IMG/VR virus record: IMGVR_UViG_2648501400_000020
Location: 1-38,746 of that record
Origin: a virus
Taxonomy: Duplodnaviria > Heunggongvirae > Uroviricota > Caudoviricetes
DNA: 38,746 nucleotides
Direction: 5' to 3' (one strand)
Shown here piece by piece: positions 3,984-29,728 of this stretch. Below the pieces are notes generated by a model. The model made no database searches, was not told the origin of the DNA, and saw only the letters and a program-made list of their open reading frames with translations. How positions within the stretch are numbered: the stretch's first letter is position 1; each line of letters opens with the position of its first letter. Position numbers and translations under genes: made by a program.

Positions 3984-4314
3984 TCTTTTTGCATGGAAAG
4001 GAGCCGATGATTTTCGGCGCATCCATGCTGTTCTGCAGCAGTTGCACATTCAGGAATCGCGTTTCGGTACCAGGGCGACGAATGTATTCAAAGCCGTAGT
4101 TGTTACCGTCTTTGGCTGGCATAAGCCCCATGTCTACTTTCAAACCATTGGTACCCAGTTCGGTGATTTTTTGAGAGGTAACTCTTTCACCGTTGATTGT
4201 CGATAACTCGCCCTGGTTTGCAACCATAGTGTAGCCACCGCATTTAACCGTGAAGCCATCCGCCCACGCGCTGCACGCAGAAAAGACAGCTAACCGAAAA
4301 ATAATCCCCCTCAT
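3973..4314 (-). CDS. Secreted/periplasmic protein with N-terminal signal peptide (moron, function unknown)
   Basis: 113 aa; hydrophobic N-terminus with AWA-DG cleavage-like site; two Cys; inserted between baseplate genes. Confidence 0.5.
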   Translation of the reverse strand: MRGIIFRLAVFSACSAWADGFTVKCGGYTMVANQGELSTINGERVTSQKITELGTNGLKVDMGLMPAKDGNNYGFEYIRRPGTETRFLNVQLLQNSMDAPKIIGSFPCKKIVD

Positions 4315-22496: not shown

Positions 22497-23051
22497 TCAA
22501 CAGACAGTTTTTAAATACCCGGAAGAGAATGCATCACGCATCGGCAGATAGAGCATATATTCAGCAAGATTTAGCCATACATCTACCCGACTGCAGCACG
22601 TCCGAAAACACCACTCAGGGTGTGCATCATTTAGCAATTCAGCCATTTTGCGCTTACTCATCCCCCGCCCTTCATATCTTTGCCGGAGGATACAAATCAA
22701 TCCTGGGTGTTCTGCCAGCACTTCACTAATCACCCGATCAATGCATAACGCCTCTGCATCAGTACAATGCACCAGCCAGCTTTTTTGCTTGCCGTTGATC
22801 ATATCCCGCAAAAAAGCCTCAAGTTCAGGTTTGTCCAGACCTGCTTTTTTCATCCTCCGGAGCGCCTCATTAATTGCCGTTTTTGTTAGCTTTTTAGAGG
22901 TCAGCAACTGGTTAAACATATTTCCCGTCTTACCGCCGCCAATATACGACCAGCGCCCCCACATGCGCAGTTTTCCCTGAATCCAGACACTTTCCAGCGT
23001 GGTGAGACGAAGGTGTTCCCCGCTTTTGCCTGTATTCGTTGGGTAAATCAT
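22497..23051 (-). CDS. Late-gene antiterminator (Q-like); start taken at internal ATG 23051 coupled to upstream stop
   Basis: Cys/His-rich basic protein in the canonical position between nin-type genes and the lysis cassette; ATGA overlap with upstream gene. Confidence 0.55.
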   Translation of the reverse strand: MIYPTNTGKSGEHLRLTTLESVWIQGKLRMWGRWSYIGGGKTGNMFNQLLTSKKLTKTAINEALRRMKKAGLDKPELEAFLRDMINGKQKSWLVHCTDAEALCIDRVISEVLAEHPGLICILRQRYEGRGMSKRKMAELLNDAHPEWCFRTCCSRVDVWLNLAEYMLYLPMRDAFSSGYLKTVC

Positions 23052-23338
23052 AAATAACCTTCCTTTCTCCAGATTTCTTGTGTGCGAAAAACACCTTCTG
23101 CATGCATCAGGCGTAATTCTTCTTTGGTGTAATCGCTGGTTTTTACCCGCCCGTCGATTAAATCGTGGCATGAGCTACAGGCAATCGCTGCCTGCATATC
23201 GTGTGGTTTTGTCGCTGTTCCGCACGTCCCCGCCAGCCTGTAATGCGCCAGCACAGAAGTTTCGGGATTGTGATTGCAGTAGCCAGGAATTCTGACGGTG
23301 CACATCTGCCCCCGCGCCGCTTTACGTAAATCCACCAT
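23048..23338 (-). CDS. DUF1364-type putative nuclease (YbcO-like)
   Basis: 96 aa with Cys/His cluster (CTVRIPGYCNHNPETSVLAHYRL...CSSCHD), typical nin-region gene just upstream of Q. Confidence 0.6.
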   Translation of the reverse strand: MVDLRKAARGQMCTVRIPGYCNHNPETSVLAHYRLAGTCGTATKPHDMQAAIACSSCHDLIDGRVKTSDYTKEELRLMHAEGVFRTQEIWRKEGYL

Positions 23339-23937
23339 TACGCAAACTCCAGCAGCTGCACGGCCACATTTTCGACTTGTTCCGGAGAGGAAAATTTACG
23401 GAACAGAATCCAGTTCCACAGCACATTCAGTACAGATTTATAAACCTGCTGAAACTCGGTTTCGTCCATATTCGCAAACGAGATGGATTTCGCCCTGCGC
23501 CCACGGCTACCGTCCGGATAAATATGCTCGGTGTAAAATCCGGCCTGAATGGTTACCCACTCGCGGAAAGCGTCAAACGACTTTAGCAATGCCGTATCCC
23601 GGGTTCTGCGTGTTGCAACTGTATTCAGATATTGCTCTGCGGCTTGGCTCAGAGCTGGCGTATGTTCCCGACCTACTGATTCACACAGGTAATCAACGAA
23701 ACCAGACAGCAGTTCTCGTTCGCGAGGCGTGATCGCCCCACCGACCGGAGTCCAGTAATCGAATCCCAATTGCAGGAGTTTGAAAAAACGCTTGTGGAAT
23801 GCGTAGTTACGCACACGCTTAAAGTCTGCGTGTATCCACTCGCCTATTTTTATTTGATGCAAAAAATCGCAACTCTCCGGCGTCGCCGGGAGAAGTAATC
23901 CGGAAGAGGTTTGTTTGACCAGTTGTATATGCGCCAT
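23338..23937 (-). CDS. Conserved nin-region protein (DUF1367-like)
   Basis: 199 aa ORF coupled to the YbcO-like gene. Confidence 0.4.
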   Translation of the reverse strand: MAHIQLVKQTSSGLLLPATPESCDFLHQIKIGEWIHADFKRVRNYAFHKRFFKLLQLGFDYWTPVGGAITPRERELLSGFVDYLCESVGREHTPALSQAAEQYLNTVATRRTRDTALLKSFDAFREWVTIQAGFYTEHIYPDGSRGRRAKSISFANMDETEFQQVYKSVLNVLWNWILFRKFSSPEQVENVAVQLLEFA

Positions 23938-24008
23938 CGTAGTTCTCCGCTGGCGCAGTAGAATGGGTGTTCAGCCCGTTATGTAGTATACCAGAATTAA
24001 TGCCAATA

Positions 24009-24260
24009 CTAACAGGATGCTCTGACTCGCAATTCATCCAGCAGTTTATCATTTCCCATAATGTCACTTACCCTCATCGGTAAAAAAATTGCCTTTCGAC
24101 CATTACGATACATCATTGATTTTTTAGTTTCAGGGAAGTAATCCATTTCGACTATAACTGACAGGTCATCACGACGTATGACTGCATATTTGCTACTAAA
24201 TAGTTTCTTTATTTTTTCCACGATGCCTCCAGGTTTATAAGTACAAACGGTTATATCCAC
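24009..24260 (-). CDS. Hypothetical protein, possible gene remnant (GTG start, no Shine-Dalgarno)
   Basis: 83 aa ORF beginning with GTG, preceded by an AT-rich region; coding status doubtful. Confidence 0.25.
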   Translation of the reverse strand: MDITVCTYKPGGIVEKIKKLFSSKYAVIRRDDLSVIVEMDYFPETKKSMMYRNGRKAIFLPMRVSDIMGNDKLLDELRVRASC

Positions 24261-24404
24261 ATAGAGACAAAAATATTAATCTGAAAAATATTTATTTCAC
24301 GTCGTATATTTGATTATTTAATGTGCAGGTACAATGACTTTTATTTTGTGTTGTGTATATAATCAAATATATGGTTATTTTTCACCCTACGTATTCAGCA
24401 CGCA

Positions 24405-24428
24405 ACAAAAAACCCGCCGAAGCGGGTT
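24405..24428 (-). terminator. Rho-independent terminator of the hok transcript
   Basis: cccgc-cgaa-gcggg hairpin (24413-24426) with T-run on the minus strand, about 70 nt downstream of the hok stop. Confidence 0.6.
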
Positions 24429-24495
24429 TAGTGCGGGTGCGTTGAGGATGCCTGACACATGAGAGGTGGCGAGGGATTACCCCTCGCCTGGTCTC

Positions 24496-24651
24496 TTACT
24501 TCTCAGATTCGTAGGCTACGAAGACAGCGACCTCCATCTGGCCGGTTCGGATTCGTACCTCGCAGAGGTCTTTCCTCGTTACCAGTGCCGTCACTATGAC
24601 GGTTAAACAGATGGCGATCAGGGCGATTAACATCGCCTTTTGCTGCTTCAT
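24496..24651 (-). CDS. hok: Hok/Gef-family type I toxin (51 aa); below the ORF-track length cutoff
   Basis: My translation: MKQQKAMLIALIAICLTVIVTALVTRKDLCEVRIRTGQMEVAVFVAYESEK; AAGGAG Shine-Dalgarno; short upstream ORF ends overlapping the start codon. Confidence 0.85.
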   Translation of the reverse strand: MKQQKAMLIALIAICLTVIVTALVTRKDLCEVRIRTGQMEVAVFVAYESEK

Positions 24652-24909
24652 AGCCTGCTTCTCCTTGACCTTTCGGTCCGTAAGAGGCTAATCTCTATGT
24701 GTCGCATAGATATGGCCTCAGATTAATGTTAAGCGTCTTGCCGGACGCGTAATGTTAACTGGGGCTTTTCTCTATCTGCCTTTTGGTGTTCATGCCTGAG
24801 ACAGATAGCCTCAAGCACCCACAGTCATTCTACTTAACTAAGATTTCCCTGCAAACCGTTTTTGTCCGGCACAGTAAATATCCAACTAAACCAATAGCGT
24901 TCGCTGTAT

Positions 24910-25089
24910 TTACCGCCAGTATTCAATGCACGTGACCGCCATGAACACCCCTAAAAAAAGGGCATTTATATGTCCAAACATTAATATCAAAACATCAATT
25001 TTTTCCATATACCTTGCTGTGAAGATGATGGGCATACATGATGCGAACAACCAGAACGCAACAAACAAAAACTGCAATGCGTTTTTCAT
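24910..25089 (-). CDS. Small hydrophobic membrane protein (start taken at ATG 25089 with GGGGG Shine-Dalgarno)
   Basis: 59 aa, two predicted transmembrane helices (FLFVAFWLFASCMPIIF and ALFLGVFMAVTCI); AT-rich flanks. Confidence 0.35.
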   Translation of the reverse strand: MKNALQFLFVAFWLFASCMPIIFTARYMEKIDVLILMFGHINALFLGVFMAVTCIEYWR

Positions 25090-25300
25090 TATTCCCCCTA
25101 CAATCAATGTGCAATTACATTTAAACACACCTCAATTTGGCCGGACATATAAATATCTAAACCAGAAAAAATCACTTACATAGCGTTACAAACTCTTTAG
25201 TCTAAATATTCATCGTAAAACATTCCCCATACTTATCAGCCCACTCTACGCCAGGTAGCTCATTGCCTTATCTGGGAATCTGTAATCAGGTTTCCGTTTT

Positions 25301-25717
25301 TCAGTCGGCTGGTCGTTTAACCGGCATAGTTAACCCATTAATCTGGTTGCCGGATGCTGGTGGATTTTCGCGTTTTAGTTGTTCATAAAAGTGCACAGCT
25401 TTAACCAGTTCTTCTGATGTAACCGGAACTGGTGGGGCAGTGAATAAGGCCTGAATTTCATAGTTCGGCCTGTCGTTACAATCCTCTTTTTTCGGTACAT
25501 ATTTCCAGTCACCAACCCACAACTCCCCCTGAGAGTCCATAACACCTTTTTTCACGTAGCGATATCGCCACGCTATCGGCTCTGCTTCCAGCGATGCCAG
25601 TGCAATTTTGAATAACTCGCCCTCTACTCGCGCCACCCCTGAATTGGGGTGGCATTTCGTAATCGCTATTTTTAATTTGGCTTCTTCGATTAATTGTTCT
25701 TTTGTTAATTCAGTCAT
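25301..25717 (-). CDS. Hypothetical protein (nin-like region)
   Basis: 138 aa ORF with ATG start, same orientation as replication operon; no recognisable motif. Confidence 0.4.
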   Translation of the reverse strand: MTELTKEQLIEEAKLKIAITKCHPNSGVARVEGELFKIALASLEAEPIAWRYRYVKKGVMDSQGELWVGDWKYVPKKEDCNDRPNYEIQALFTAPPVPVTSEELVKAVHFYEQLKRENPPASGNQINGLTMPVKRPAD

Positions 25718-25811
25718 TTTTATTACCGCCCTTTCAGGCGGCCTCCTGATGTTCTGAGGGTGCAGAAATCCCTCCGGTTAAGGATTTAATTTTTAACAGA
25801 GCTAAATTTAA

Positions 25812-26168
25812 TTATTCAGTTCTGGATTTTGTCGCCCTGCGTATCCGCGCTTTCACGTTACGCTCAATCTGAATTAGCTTTTCTATATTTTTTCGCCTTT
25901 CCCGCTCCTCCTGACGCAAGAGCCTTACATCATCTGCCAGTCTGGTTTCTCTTTTCGCCACAGAGAGCATCCAGTCAAATGGCTCCACAACTGCACCGCA
26001 GATTTTACAGCGGACCTGACGCTCTTTTTCGTCAACCCGGACAGAGGCGTGATGACAATATGGTCTTTCCGATGGCTCATAAAGAAAATTAACCTGATTA
26101 CGAGGGTCATCCTCTTTTACCGGAAATAAAACGATATTGCTTAACTCATCCTCTGGTTTTATTTCCAT
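25812..26168 (-). CDS. Hypothetical Cys/His-containing protein (start taken at ATG 26168 with AAGGAGAGG Shine-Dalgarno)
   Basis: CHH...CKIC spacing suggests a small zinc-binding module; basic C-terminal tail. Confidence 0.4.
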   Translation of the reverse strand: MEIKPEDELSNIVLFPVKEDDPRNQVNFLYEPSERPYCHHASVRVDEKERQVRCKICGAVVEPFDWMLSVAKRETRLADDVRLLRQEERERRKNIEKLIQIERNVKARIRRATKSRTE

Positions 26169-26225
26169 GCTCCTCTCCTTTGATGCGAATGCCAGCGGTA
26201 ATTGAAGCCTGATAGCTAATTTCAC

Positions 26226-26648
26226 TCACAGTGCCGCCTCCTGAAAATTACCCTGATAGAAAGCCAGTACACGCTGCATAGCTTCACTCTTCCGGCACTC
26301 GCGACAGATTATATTCAGGCGCCTGTCGTAGCGGCGTATTTCTCCGTCTGGTAATGACCAGATTAGGTCCGGATCAACTACTGCAGGTTTCTTCACCTTT
26401 GTCCTTGAGAGTTTTTTGCGGGCATTTTGCCAGTCCTTACGAGCCTGTTCAGACGGGAATAACCCGTAACCAGAGTTGTATACATCGCCACTGGCAACCA
26501 GCTCTCTGGCAAGAACGCTCATCAGATATCTTGTCGCACCTGTCTTGGCTTCCAGTTGCCGTAACGTCTCGCGCCCACTCCGGCGTACTAGCTCAACAAC
26601 CTGCCCTTTAATTTTTTCTCGCTCTTCTTGTGTAAATACTTTTGCCAT
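26226..26648 (-). CDS. Hypothetical protein (start taken at ATG 26648 with GGAGG Shine-Dalgarno)
   Basis: 140 aa ORF in replication/nin operon; C-terminal CRECRK motif. Confidence 0.4.
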   Translation of the reverse strand: MAKVFTQEEREKIKGQVVELVRRSGRETLRQLEAKTGATRYLMSVLARELVASGDVYNSGYGLFPSEQARKDWQNARKKLSRTKVKKPAVVDPDLIWSLPDGEIRRYDRRLNIICRECRKSEAMQRVLAFYQGNFQEAAL

Positions 26649-26663
26649 AGGTGCCTCCGGCAA

Positions 26664-27425
26664 TCACTTTTCCGACACAATACGGCTGGAGGAATCGAAA
26701 ATATGTCGAACAATATCCCGGTGCTTGTTCAGCTCCCGCAGCGCGGCGCAGACTCGCTCCCACTTCTGGACATGATTTTTCGCCCGACGCAGTTCGCGGT
26801 TTGCCATATGCAGCGATGGTAAAACCAGGTCATCCGCTCGCGTTTCAGTAAACGATGGCAGCGACTGCACAATGTCCGCCACCGTTTCTGTTTTAATATC
26901 TTCCTGTGTTGCAGCCTCCTGTACTGGTAACGCAACACCTGCGGGCTGAGGAAAGGCCTTACCATCAGTTTCCGCTACCGATGCTGCTTTCGGCTCTGCT
27001 GGTAAATTATCGCCTGGTATGCAGTAACGAAATTTACCGCCCTGATTTACGCGAATCAGACGACCTTTGCTGATTGCCATTGCCAGCGTTGAAGCCACTT
27101 TGCGTGATGTGGTACCAAACAATGTAGCCAGCTCATCAGCCGTTTGTGGTCCGCGTTGTTCAATCGTCGCGGTTAAATCGCACTCTGAGATTTTCGCGAC
27201 TGTTGCCGTGGTAGTTTCTTCCGGCAGTTCTGCCTGCGCTGGCTGTTCCTGCTGAACGTTGTTATCAGCCACACGCCAGGTGTACGCGGTTTTATCAACA
27301 AAACCAGCTTTTTTCAGTTCCCACAGCTCGTTCAGCACTTCTTCACGACTGATATCAAGTCGCGCAGCAAGTTCTACCGACGTGGCTTTTCCCATTGCTT
27401 TCAGTGCGTCAAAAACAGTCTCCAT
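26664..27425 (-). CDS. DUF1627-like winged-helix protein (start taken at ATG 27425 with GGGAGGA Shine-Dalgarno)
   Basis: N-terminal segment [34 protein letters not shown] resembles a winged-helix DNA-binding domain; follows DnaC-like gene. Confidence 0.5.
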
Positions 27426-27447
27426 TAAAATTTCCTCCCGGTAAAAA

Positions 27448-28194
27448 TCACTTCGCAATTCCTGGCTGGACGACATTCGGACGCCAGCTCTCCCAGTTAA
27501 AATTCACCCATCGCCCGCCGTTCATGGTCATGCGATCCATAATCCTCTCGCCGAGCAATGTTTTCATGGCCTCATAGTTCAGGTTTGTCAGCATCCCCAC
27601 GCTGCGCATCGACGCTGTCCGGCGATCAACAATCTGGTGCAGCACCACCTGCTCGTTTTTTGTCTCGCGCTGAATGCCAATTTCATCAAGAACCAGCAGA
27701 TCCACTTCGCACAGTTCCCGCAAAAATTTTTCGCCTGACTGCCCGTCGTCATAGCTGGCGTGCAGGGCGCTCATAACATCAGCCACGGTAACCACAATCA
27801 CTGTCTGACCGTCTTTCAGCAGGCGATTCCCGATAGCTGCCGCTAAGTGATTCTTCCCGGTACCAGGTTTTCCGCTGAACGCAAAATTTGTACACCCGGT
27901 CATCAGTTCATCGGCGATGGATTTCGCCTGGCTTAACGCGTATCGCTGGCCGTCGTTCTGCACCTGGTAATTCGCAAACGAGCATTTACGGTGCAACGGC
28001 TGGATGCCTGAGCGATTCAGAATTTTTTCCACCCGCAACTGGCGATTCAGGCGGTTGATCTCCTCGCTACGTTTCTGGCCTTCAGCAAGTTGCCACTCGC
28101 GCCACTCCGCTACCGTTCTGAATGGGGCGGTTACATGTGGTGGGGTCAGTCTGCGGATACGCTCCAGAACGCCGCCTGTCGCAATATTTTTCAT
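27448..28194 (-). CDS. DnaC-like replicative helicase loader (IstB-type AAA+ ATPase)
   Basis: Walker [16 protein letters not shown] and Walker B-like LLVLDEIG; 248 aa, directly downstream of O-like initiator. Confidence 0.8.
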
Positions 28195-28200
28195 GGTCTG

Positions 28201-28989
28201 TTACCCCCTGAAGCCTGGCGGGATCGCACTATCCGGCAACGAGACGGTGTTAACCTGTCGGAGCAACGTCTCAGGCCGAACACCTTTCGGTGCGAACAAG
28301 CCCTGGTATTCATTGGCGATGCTGTGTCGAATCACCTGCTCAGGTGTAAAACCCTGCTGACGGAATTTTTCCAGTTCCCGTATCGCCCCGTTAGCGCCCT
28401 GCTCCGTTCGAATCGGTTTTCGCAATGCCTGTCTGAACCGGACCCACTCATGCCAGAGTGTTTCCGGCAACCAATCGGGCAGCTCAATAGCCTCCGGCTC
28501 GAATTTTTTAGACGCTCGTTTTTGGCGAGGGGGATTTAGGGGGAGATCAGTATTTATATCTTCCTCTTCCTCTTCCTCTGGTAACGCTTTTTGATCCGTT
28601 TGTGTAACGCTGCCAGCGTTATCTTTTCGTTTCAGTTCGCGTATTTTTGTAACTCGCTCGTTTGTAACCGCCCGTTTTTTAGAGCTTTTTCCGTTATGAC
28701 GTTCAAAGTTAGGTAGAGAAAGCCCACCGTCATTTTCGACCAGCCATCCAACCTGAATTAACGCATCAGCAAAACCAGCCATAAAAGTGATGCGGTCTAT
28801 TGCACTTTTTGTAACGCCGCGAGCGTTACAATCTGCATTACCGTCTATCATTTGTTGATCCGCCCATGCCCAGAAGCGAATAACCTTCCCTAATGCGGCA
28901 TCTGGATCAATATTCAGAATCTCAGCAAGCCTGAATATTTCCGGCTTATCCGGCGTAATAACCTCGAGCTTTATCCAGTTTGAAGCCAT
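28201..28989 (-). CDS. Replication initiator / replisome organiser (lambda O-like position)
   Basis: 262 aa with acidic EEEEEED linker; three palindromic iteron-like repeats lie in and just upstream of the gene. Confidence 0.6.
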   Translation of the reverse strand: MASNWIKLEVITPDKPEIFRLAEILNIDPDAALGKVIRFWAWADQQMIDGNADCNARGVTKSAIDRITFMAGFADALIQVGWLVENDGGLSLPNFERHNGKSSKKRAVTNERVTKIRELKRKDNAGSVTQTDQKALPEEEEEEDINTDLPLNPPRQKRASKKFEPEAIELPDWLPETLWHEWVRFRQALRKPIRTEQGANGAIRELEKFRQQGFTPEQVIRHSIANEYQGLFAPKGVRPETLLRQVNTVSLPDSAIPPGFRG

Positions 28990-29066: not shown

Positions 29067-29489
29067 TCAATGCACTACGACAGAATCGCCGGGCGACCCA
29101 CCACCGCTGAAATGTGCTTTCCGGTAAACGGCCTGGACTGCATCATCATGCGCATCAATTGCCGTACTCAACGCTTCCTGCGCCGCCAGTAATGCACGGC
29201 GTTCCAGGGTATCGAAGATGCAGAGTCGGTGACGCAGCTCGCGCGGAAGAATTGCCAGAACCGCAGGGATCAGTTTCTGAATTTTTTCCCTTTGCGCTTT
29301 CGTTTCACCTTTCAACCAACGGTGATAGATATTCTGCTGATTGTTCCAGTCCTTGCCTAGTACAAGGGGCAATTCGCCGCCCCCCTGGCGCAGATATTCT
29401 TCAGTAATTGCGTTAGCGACCCACGCCTGCCCTTTTTCGGCTGCCAGGGCTAACAACACTGATTCGATGTGCTCATGCCTGATTTTCAT
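29067..29489 (-). CDS. cII-position protein, YdaT-like (Rac prophage type)
   Basis: 140 aa, translationally coupled (ATGA) to the cro-like gene, upstream of replication genes. Confidence 0.55.
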   Translation of the reverse strand: MKIRHEHIESVLLALAAEKGQAWVANAITEEYLRQGGGELPLVLGKDWNNQQNIYHRWLKGETKAQREKIQKLIPAVLAILPRELRHRLCIFDTLERRALLAAQEALSTAIDAHDDAVQAVYRKAHFSGGGSPGDSVVVH

Positions 29490-29728
29490 GAATCAACCGC
29501 TCCTATGCTGTTTTCGCTATGCTTACCGTCTGGGGGGAATACATCGTCAAGTCCACAATGAGCGCCAAGCCGATTAAGGGTAGAAACAATTTTTCTGCAC
29601 TCCTCTAGTCCAGGGGTACGAAAATTTGCTTCGTAATTTGCCAGTCGGCTTTGTATCCACCCTAACTGAACAGCAAGTTGTCTTTGAGACAGCCCAAGCT
29701 GTTTTCGATATGTTGAAATTTTGTTCAT
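29486..29728 (-). CDS. Cro-like HTH transcriptional regulator (YdaS-like)
   Basis: 80 aa with HTH motif LGLSQRQLAVQLGWIQSRLANYE; divergent from repressor gene; GGAGG Shine-Dalgarno. Confidence 0.65.
   Translation of the reverse strand: MNKISTYRKQLGLSQRQLAVQLGWIQSRLANYEANFRTPGLEECRKIVSTLNRLGAHCGLDDVFPPDGKHSENSIGAVDS

Follow-up and report, generated by a model that had tools for sequence, protein, structure and literature searches.

The window analysed here, the whole 38,746-nt stretch of IMG/VR record IMGVR_UViG_2648501400_000020, carries a Rac/Qin-type lambdoid prophage of E. coli, in which three consecutive genes, here called ORFs A, B, and C, lie between the replication genes and a hok/sok locus. 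The replication module (27448-28989, minus strand; phrog_2509, E 1.3e-89; phrog_50, E 2.3e-83; PF01695, E 1.3e-19) comprises an O-like initiator gene (28201-28989) and a DnaC/IstB-like helicase loader gene (27448-28194). A DUF1627 gene (26664-27476, minus strand; PF07789, E 4.7e-99) is placed between the loader gene and ORF A, and its product contains an N-terminal winged-helix domain (HTH_20, E 7.4e-6) and also gave weak Ren-like PHROG matches (phrog_142, E 1.9e-4). ORF A (26226-26648, 140 aa), ORF B (25812-26168, 118 aa), and ORF C (25301-25717, 138 aa) follow on the minus strand, co-oriented with the O-like, DnaC-like, and DUF1627 genes, so the coordinates and orientation given in the preliminary description were confirmed. 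Downstream, the slot is bounded by the hok/sok type I toxin-antitoxin locus (24410-24820, minus strand), with hok at 24496-24651 (NCBIfam Hok, E 4.3e-14), the sok/hok-leader RNA at 24649-24820 (Rfam RF01794 sok, 106.7 bits, E 2e-24), and a terminator-like site downstream of hok at 24429-24410. The NinB-like DUF1367 gene (23338-23937) and YbcO (23048-23338) are genes separate from A, B, and C. An Rfam scan of 23500-27500 returned nothing besides sok, and repeats in 24300-27600 were limited to short matches at chance level. The boundary motif CTGAATAATTAAAT was considered as a recurring module linker and rejected, having a single occurrence in the window.

The gaps across the DUF1627-A-B-C run measured 15, 57, and 94 nt, and the terminator scan found no terminator-like site on the minus strand between A, B, and C. 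Orientation, short gaps, and the lack of predicted terminators point to membership in one operon, and the three would be delayed-early genes, most likely expressed by read-through from the pR-type operon that expresses the replication genes. In phage lambda, both ren and the nin genes belong to the delayed-early pR genes and are non-essential (PMC10695390).

All three are genuine genes, far beyond chance ORFs. Their reading frames are intact, we found 887 homologues for A, 124 for B, and 620 for C, and identical E. coli proteins are present in RefSeq (A, WP_052906005.1; B, WP_052906004.1; C, WP_052906003.1). Good ribosome-binding sites had been ascribed to all three, which held for A (GGAGG 6 nt before the ATG at 26648) and B (AGGAGAGGAG before the ATG) but not for C, where the AGGAGG lies 24 nt from the ATG. 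The interval had also been drawn out to 26663. That position corresponds to an upstream TTG, and the ATG at 26648 is the likely start of A because its homologues are 140 to 141 aa long.

While no motif had been recognised in these proteins beyond Cys/His pairs in two of them, HMM searches clearly identified ORF A as a DUF977/Ren-like winged-helix protein of the DUF977/YdaW/LygF family. It matched Pfam PF06163 (DUF977) over profile positions 1-134 of 134 (E 1.4e-29; 103.3 bits against a curated cutoff of 22.1), which places it with YdaW of the E. coli Rac prophage and LygF of Salmonella, and phrog_142 ("Ren-like exclusion protein") over positions 1-115 of 116 (E 5.5e-48). Lambda Ren matched phrog_142 too (E 1.6e-41, positions 11-110 of 116). 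The layout of A comprises a winged-helix N-terminus, a basic linker, and a C-terminal ECRxSxAMxRVLAxY motif common to lambda Ren. In BLASTP, pairwise similarity between A and Ren was limited to 20 residues of this C-terminal motif, of which 12 were identical (E 4e-7). Lambda Ren itself gave no match to Pfam DUF977 at E < 1, and the link between A and Ren is thus based on the PHROG profile together with the C-terminal motif.

The likeness extends to gene order, in that both genes come after the replication genes (O-like, DnaC-like, DUF1627, A here; O-P-ren in lambda). However, ren follows P directly, whereas A is parted from the loader gene by the DUF1627 gene; in ATCC 43886, a DUF977 gene comes directly after the loader gene. 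The two proteins also differ in size (140 aa for A, 96 aa for Ren), and the basic linker of A, about 45 residues long, is absent from Ren. The one CxxC in A (CREC) is unlikely to be a metal site, since lambda Ren has a Lys in place of the first Cys. Judged by profile, motif, and position, lambda Ren appears to have its counterpart in A, a small winged-helix protein whose gene comes after the replication genes.

The genetic phenotype of lambda ren is reportedly resistance to exclusion by Rex (RexAB), as described by Toothman and Herskowitz in 1980. To our knowledge, resistance to Rex exclusion is known for lambda ren only. A search of the literature on ren and Rex returned nothing on the mechanism of Ren, and "works like Ren" therefore denotes a phenotype and not a mechanism. 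By analogy, the most likely role of A would be Ren-type protection of early development: it would keep early development and replication of the phage from setting off an abortive-infection or exclusion system, or from being blocked by one, and would bind DNA or a partner protein via its winged helix and conserved C-terminal helix. YdaW of Rac was among the prophage genes that blocked the retron-Sen2 toxin RcaT when overexpressed (bioRxiv 10.1101/2020.06.22.160242); this was an overexpression screen, with an allele other than A. For DUF977, YdaW, LygF, DUF1627, DUF7167, the WP accessions, and the PHROG ids, the literature searches turned up that screen and no further functional study.

ORF B matched phrog_1621 (E 7.3e-56, profile positions 1-120 of 134) and is a full-length member of the phrog_1621/8538/4865 group, nin-region zinc-ribbon coiled-coil proteins of enterobacterial lambdoid phages. 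The N-terminus of B is disordered and bears a conserved E-x-ELSNVVxFP motif; it is followed by a zinc ribbon, C38-x-H40...C54-x-x-C57, and then by a coiled-coil helix (residues 63-117) that is long and conserved. All four metal ligands of the phrog_1621 family are retained in B, and so are the motif at the N-terminus and the C-terminal helix. Two alignments showed that the ligands were conserved family-wide; among 85 sequences with a mean column identity of 14%, C38, C54, and C57 were invariant and H40 was conserved in at least 90%. The preliminary description had noted Cys/His pairs in two of the proteins; those of B are the conserved ligands, and A has the one CxxC discussed above. The AlphaFold2 model of B had a mean pLDDT of 72.9, with the helix above 90, and strands at 43-46 and 51-54. 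With four conserved ligands, two knuckles, and a beta-hairpin pair, this part of the model is a generic zinc ribbon, and metal binding is predicted. The long coiled coil probably allows B to dimerise.

The family is large and constrained. It is contained in 978 clusters at 50% identity, and all 85 distant relatives of B also matched phrog_1621, while there is no Pfam family for B, the same 85 relatives giving only sub-threshold zinc-ribbon or coiled-coil matches. Compared with a close allele, the dN/dS of B was 0.10; compared with other genera, synonymous sites were saturated, with protein identity still at 41 to 71%. B is thus under purifying selection.

HMM searches placed each of the three proteins in a family; structure searches gave no informative fold match for B. 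Foldseek of B against PDB and BFVD returned nothing at E ≤ 1e-3, only a generic TFIIB-like ribbon, and a PDB profile search with B retrieved coiled-coil proteins only. Residues 36-62 superposed on the N-terminal ribbon of TFIIB at 1.8 Å over 27 residues, at a Foldseek E of 0.16, and B scored 21.6 bits against PF08271 (TFIIB-type zinc ribbon), below the curated cutoff of 29. Similarly weak PF08271 matches were seen in 11 of the 85 family members, every score below the curated cutoff. The likeness to the ribbons of TFIIB and of ribosomal protein S27e is one of generic fold and constitutes no evidence of homology or of a role in transcription. In PDB searches with the single sequences of A, B, and C, and in the profile search with C, only noise or generic coiled-coil proteins were obtained.

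The genomic position of B differed between host groups. In prophages of E. coli and Shigella, as here, B follows DUF977, whereas in other Enterobacterales it occupies the interval between a junction nuclease gene and Q. Of 16 non-Escherichia loci, 15 had B directly after NinG (7 loci), NinG-NinH (1), YbcO (4), RusA (2), or a DUF968/HNH-like gene (1), and Q downstream of B, with or without YlcG, was confirmed in 9 of those 15. Most of these loci had a 4-nt overlap, the upstream ORF ending at position 4004 and B starting at 4001, and the upstream genes belonged to five non-homologous families. This near-constant placement would fit an accessory factor of phage recombination or junction processing, its gene translationally chained to the resident branched-DNA nuclease, that binds DNA through the zinc ribbon and a basic helix; the C-terminal helix of B is indeed rich in Arg and Lys. 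However, the nin region always has its nuclease slot at the 3' end, and position alone may explain the adjacency. B of E. coli and Shigella follows DUF977, far from YbcO in this window, and in the Stx phage ArgO145 it is located in the pL operon beside Ea22-like genes. Nor did B show structural similarity to DNA-binding proteins beyond the generic zinc ribbon. We regard a role in junction processing as unlikely.

We prefer to see B as an adaptor or regulator, which, early in development, would bind nucleic acid or a factor of host or phage origin. Its N-terminal peptide looks like a docking motif, as does a C-terminal PLPLWQNE tail that is present in B of other genera and absent from the E. 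coli alleles.

ORF C matched phrog_660 (E 8e-46), and the alignment revealed a variable helical N-terminus and an invariant core, AWRYRYVKKG..GDWKYVP.KEDCNDRP.YEIQALF..PP. A Pfam scan of C gave no match at E ≤ 0.1. In BLASTP, residues 1-103 of C aligned with residues 1-94 of EaA from Shigella phage POCJ13 (37% identity, E 1e-12), and C and this EaA, one of the EaA-type proteins of P22-like and Stx phages, both match phrog_660, 5117, 60, and 3323. POCJ13 EaA carries DUF551 (PF04448) at its C-terminus (residues 230-304), a domain that is absent from C. From these alignments C appears to be a truncated EaA-type member of the "ea" family, consisting of the N-terminal module only, located in a pR-side slot whereas EaA-type genes belong to the pL "ea" region. 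An assignment of C to the Ead/Ea22-like proteins was rejected, since comparison with gp13 and gp18 of ArgO145 yielded no alignment better than E 8.

The 94-nt leader of C (25718-25811, minus strand) is predicted to fold into two hairpins (MFE -22.8 kcal/mol, z -1.75). C lacks a Shine-Dalgarno at normal distance, and between the AGGAGG (25747-25742) and the ATG lies a 7-bp hairpin with a GAAA loop (25742-25725), making a structured-spacer ribosome-binding site possible. Two other E. coli prophages, in which C is preceded by a DUF4752 or Ead/Ea22-like gene, have a leader 95% identical to this one, so that it appears to travel with ORF C.

Between two NPP repeats, about 30 aa that most homologues possess are missing from the C allele, which ends in a short divergent tail, while the 201-aa forms run approximately 45 residues further. 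It therefore looks internally deleted and C-terminally shortened, and it may be partly degenerate; its AlphaFold2 model was poor (mean pLDDT 54.7). Together with the non-canonical Shine-Dalgarno spacing and a C-like pseudogene (frameshift and internal stop) at the same position in E. coli F5505-C1, these features could be taken to mean that the three genes, and C especially, are decaying remnants of a cryptic prophage without present function. Against this, all three frames are intact, and the C allele is recurrent, with identical or near-identical copies among 192 sequences of the databases and in 20 complete genomes of E. coli, as well as in Shigella. The conservation of the C leader, the purifying selection on B, and the 94 to 99% identity of A and B to thousands of copies likewise argue against decay, which we consider highly improbable.

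We mapped the presence and absence of the genes in 5426 complete E. coli genomes. A was present in 4075 (75%) and B in 1679 (31%), full-length C was found in 20, and parts of C were found in 43%. Each of the three was also found in the absence of the other two and at different places in operons, C for instance following DUF4752 or Ead/Ea22-like genes elsewhere. On this distribution, the three as a co-inherited unit were rejected; rather than a single system, they are accessory modules that are unrelated and move independently. The preliminary description had regarded the interval from the replication genes to the hok island as a variable slot, which was borne out: in other E. coli prophages the same slot holds DUF7167, DUF4406, DUF4752, DUF4014, Ead/Ea22-like genes, and small hypotheticals in varied combinations. 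Its further suggestion of undescribed cargo did not survive, since all three proteins are common and belong to families already catalogued in RefSeq, Pfam, and PHROGs.

A defence function, named in the preliminary description among those known from nin-like regions, found no support, as none of the three matched the PADLOC-DB v2 defence models at E ≤ 0.01, and NCBIfam gave no match for A, B, or C. Nor did any of them map to a well-characterised nin-region family with a housekeeping role, Pfam and PHROG searches giving no match to the lambda Nin families (NinB, C, D, E, F, G, H, and I). A dedicated anti-defence or superinfection-exclusion cassette made up of all three genes, or of A with B, could be imagined from the Ren-like nature of A, from the block of a retron toxin by YdaW, and from the presence of Lar, Dam, and other counter-defence-type genes in this slot elsewhere. 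A few database proteins are even fusions of DUF977 and B (P0040, P0041, and P0058), but these are single-member clusters and probably represent deletions or frameshifts. The missing PADLOC matches, the very unequal prevalences, and the occurrence of the genes apart from one another speak against a cassette, as does the absence of DUF977 from all non-Escherichia B loci examined. A cassette of this kind is quite doubtful.

Taken together, we favour with reasonable confidence the explanation that A, B, and C are genuine delayed-early genes encoding a Ren-like protein, a zinc-ribbon protein that would be an adaptor or regulator, and a truncated EaA-type protein, respectively, and that they are mutually unrelated modules. 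As it stands, nothing changes: the genes are ordinary, and RefSeq, Pfam, and PHROGs already contain near-identical proteins. There is a small chance that the three include at least one undescribed factor of counter-defence or host takeover. If so, DUF977/Ren-like proteins might be general inhibitors of abortive-infection toxins (Rex, retron RcaT); alternatively, B would be an unrecognised, widely conserved regulator with about 1000 clusters at 50% identity, and its conserved terminal peptides might dock it to a hub protein of the host. The locus also holds, in DUF977/Ren and B, two uncharacterised families that rank among the most abundant prophage genes of E. coli. One useful lead is the position of B, as its family provides a constant gene between five non-homologous types of junction nuclease and three non-homologous types of Q antiterminator across the Enterobacterales, making it a well-defined and cheap target for functional study.

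The prophage in the window is of the Rac/Qin lambdoid type, and its early-right operon lies on the minus strand. In order of transcription, it comprises a YdaS/Cro-like HTH gene (29486-29728), a YdaT/CII-like gene (29067-29489; phrog_163), an O-like initiator gene (28201-28989; phrog_2509), a DnaC/IstB-like loader gene (27448-28194), a DUF1627 gene (26664-27476), and then ORF A (26226-26648), ORF B (25812-26168), and ORF C (25301-25717). These are followed, on the same strand, by a small unannotated putative membrane ORF within 650 bp after ORF C, a hok/sok locus (24407-24820; Rfam sok, hok, and a terminator), a phrog_1813 gene (24009-24260), a NinB-like DUF1367 gene (23338-23937), YbcO (23048-23338), and finally a Q-like antiterminator (22497-23171). 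The spacing was 15 nt between the DUF1627 gene and ORF A, 57 nt between ORFs A and B, and 94 nt between ORFs B and C, with no terminator-like sites on the minus strand in the gaps between the three ORFs.

A preliminary description had listed ORFs A, B, and C as three consecutive unknown proteins, and their coordinates agreed exactly with ours. The upper limit that it gave, 26663, is an upstream TTG; since ORF A homologues are 140 to 141 aa long, translation probably begins at the ATG at 26648. Given the strong family matches and hundreds of homologues, all three are real genes. Exact RefSeq matches came from a 146-kb E. coli contig and have consecutive accessions (WP_052906005.1, WP_052906004.1, and WP_052906003.1), and ORF B had a dN/dS of 0.10 against a close allele, while synonymous sites were saturated against other genera. 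The good ribosome-binding sites ascribed to all three were seen for ORFs A and B (strong Shine-Dalgarno, normal spacing), but not for ORF C, which has no Shine-Dalgarno at normal spacing and an AGGAGG 24 nt upstream of its ATG.

ORF A (140 aa) matched Pfam DUF977 (103 bits; cutoff 22) and the whole phrog_142 "Ren-like exclusion protein" profile (5.5e-48). Lambda Ren itself matches phrog_142 (1.6e-41) and gave no match to Pfam DUF977. The two proteins have a C-terminal motif in common (NIICRECRKSEAMQRVLAFY in ORF A versus NLVFKECRQSAAMKRVLAVY in Ren; 12/20 identical, E 4e-7). Furthermore, Ren matched a MarR-type PHROG and ORF A a "DNA binding protein" PHROG, which fits a winged-helix N-terminus in the two proteins. 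ORF A is, however, about 45 residues longer than Ren and has a basic linker that Ren lacks; its single CxxC is not conserved in Ren and was therefore set aside as a metal site. The gene order in lambda is O-P-ren, and ORF A holds the position of ren in the window; in E. coli ATCC 43886, a DUF977 gene directly follows the loader gene. Lambda can dispense with ren and the nin genes, which are delayed-early pR genes (PMC10695390). The DUF977 family includes Rac YdaW and Salmonella LygF, and overexpression of ydaW, like that of certain other prophage genes, blocked the retron-Sen2 toxin RcaT (bioRxiv 10.1101/2020.06.22.160242), the only functional hint on this family that we found in the literature. 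From family, position, and this one screen, we assign ORF A a Ren-like role as a predicted winged-helix protein, which would shield early phage development from an exclusion or abortive-infection system. The neighboring DUF1627 protein has an N-terminal winged-helix domain with weak matches to Ren-like PHROGs (phrog_142, 1.9e-4; phrog_16568, 6.7e-3), and the prophage may therefore carry a tandem pair of Ren-related winged-helix genes. The Stx phage ArgO145, by contrast, has a DUF1627 gene in its pL operon.

ORF B (118 aa) had no Pfam or NCBIfam family and is a full-length member of phrog_1621, which is annotated without function. Its relatives formed 978 clusters at 50% identity in an exhaustive profile search, and 110 of these clusters had E values no higher than 1e-10. 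Alignments revealed a conserved N-terminal motif (E-x-ELSNVVxFP), a zinc-ribbon signature (C38-x-H40...C54-x-x-C57) whose three cysteines are invariant in 85 sequences with a mean column identity of 14%, and a strikingly conserved helix (LRxEExxRRxNIEKLIQIERNAKARIR); outside E. coli, most family members additionally have PLPLWQNE, a conserved peptide at the C-terminus. In the AlphaFold model (mean pLDDT 72.9), a disordered N-terminus is followed by a small ribbon and a single helix of 55 residues with pLDDT >90, and fold and profile searches returned nothing beyond generic TFIIB-like ribbon and coiled-coil proteins. We read ORF B as a putative adaptor or regulator that would dimerize, with a zinc ribbon, a coiled coil, and docking peptides at its termini.

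The most informative evidence on ORF B is its genomic context. DUF977 precedes the gene in E. coli and Shigella. In ArgO145, the gene belongs to the pL operon, where its neighbors are Ead/Ea22-like genes together with the small DUF7167 and 58-aa genes also found after ORF B in other E. coli prophages. At 16 loci from Yersinia, Erwinia, Pantoea, Photorhabdus, Phytobacter, Leclercia, Enterobacter, Kluyvera, and others, the nin region carries this gene at its 3' end, where it is preceded in 15 of them by NinG (7), NinG-NinH (1), YbcO (4), RusA (2), or DUF968/HNH-like (1) genes, mostly with a 4-nt overlap. This adjacency to junction-nuclease genes in other genera suggests the main rival to an adaptor or regulator, namely, that ORF B acts alongside these nucleases. 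In the nine loci with an identifiable downstream neighbor, YlcG, a Q antiterminator (of one of three non-homologous types), or both came next. Across loci L005-L009 and L017-L033 from other Enterobacterales, the ORF B family was a constant gene at the end of the nin region, between five non-homologous nuclease-type genes upstream (NinG, YbcO, RusA, DUF968, and HNH-like) and three non-homologous Q families downstream (PF03589, PF06530, and PF06323), often with YlcG in between. These varied neighborhoods therefore point to a mobile, consistently early-expressed gene without an obligatory partner. Two copies 97% identical to the E. coli gene, in L016 (Collinsella sp. MAG, 3-kb scaffold) and in L021 (Ursidibacter maritimus, 233-bp contig), almost certainly stem from E. 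coli DNA contaminating these assemblies rather than from genuine carriage. Separately, the two Klebsiella variicola prophages with an ORF B homologue (L008 and L009) carry, just past the lysis genes, an Acb2/Tad1-hairpin family gene (PF24729), an anti-CBASS/anti-Thoeris sponge fold.

ORF C (138 aa) had no match in Pfam, NCBIfam, or PADLOC, and matched phrog_660 and related PHROGs, all of unknown function. In alignments, an invariant core (AWRYRYVKKG..DSQG..W.GDWKYVP.KEDCNDRP.YEIQALF..PP...FYEQ.K.ENPP) separates the hypervariable helical N-terminus of the family from its alternative C-terminal tails. The N-terminus of EaA from Shigella phage POCJ13 aligns with ORF C residues 1-103 (E 1e-12), but EaA runs on into a DUF551 domain that ORF C lacks. 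Stx phages carry distant relatives in the pL "ea" region, phiV10 also has distant relatives, and HK022 gave a distant match; an Ead/Ea22-like identity was rejected, with no similarity to the Ead/Ea22-like proteins of ArgO145. The structure model (pLDDT 54.7) was too poor for use. We can only say that ORF C is the N-terminal module of the EaA-type family. In the window allele, about 30 residues are missing between two NPP repeats, and the protein ends earlier than the 201-aa forms; the allele is possibly degenerate. Of 5426 complete E. coli genomes, 2332 contain parts of the gene, but only 20 have the full-length window allele.

In the 94-nt leader of ORF C (25718-25811, minus strand), a 7-bp hairpin with a GAAA loop (25742-25725) fills most of the spacer between AGGAGG and ATG. 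T4 gene 38 has a structured-spacer ribosome-binding site, and the similar arrangement here is a candidate for another; the shape of the hairpin also resembles boxB. The same allele was present in two other E. coli prophages, after a DUF4752 gene or an Ead/Ea22-like gene, and was again the last gene before hokD. Because the leader and the final bases of the preceding gene (CTGAATAATTAAAT) were 95% conserved in both despite different upstream genes, the module junction lies inside the 3' end of the gene upstream of ORF C.

Directly past the ORF C stop codon, a plus-strand terminator-like hairpin with a T-run (25273-25296) would stop antisense transcription from the hok/sok side into the early operon. 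The low-GC (42-43%) 650-bp gap from ORF C to hok holds the small ORF (24910-25128, minus strand; 59-72 aa, likely ATG at 25089), with GGGGG as Shine-Dalgarno and apparently two hydrophobic helices (MKNALQFLFVAFWLF...FLGVFMAVTCIEYWR). It had no Pfam or PHROG match, and no RefSeq gene is annotated between ORF C and hokD in two E. coli genomes, where the gap was likened to this one by size (650 bp) only. The sok match (RF01794, 106.7 bits) is directly upstream of and overlaps the start of hok (24496-24651), and an intrinsic terminator lies at 24429-24410, so the hok/sok module looks intact.

ORFs A, B, and C as one unit were rejected: their prevalence in the 5426 genomes was unequal (4075, 1679, and, for full-length ORF C, 20), the best match to the whole 1.5-kb arrangement was split into three or four pieces that covered 87% of it, and each gene was found among other neighbors. 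DUF977-ORF B fusion proteins in the database were rare, single-member clusters, most simply explained as products of deletions. The observation in the preliminary description is confirmed, and its interpretation partly supported. The region is clearly a variable slot, whose genes come from the same common stock of small early genes as those of the pL "ea" region, and the families are indeed catalogued without known function. The description recognized no motif apart from Cys/His pairs in two of the proteins, but the genes are recognizable, as members of DUF977/phrog_142, phrog_1621, and phrog_660; the proposed undescribed cargo proved to be already known, with identical proteins in RefSeq, and none of the three, going by PADLOC, is a known defense. 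ORFs A, B, and C are known members of catalogued families of unknown function, best supported as three independent delayed-early accessory genes and not as one system.
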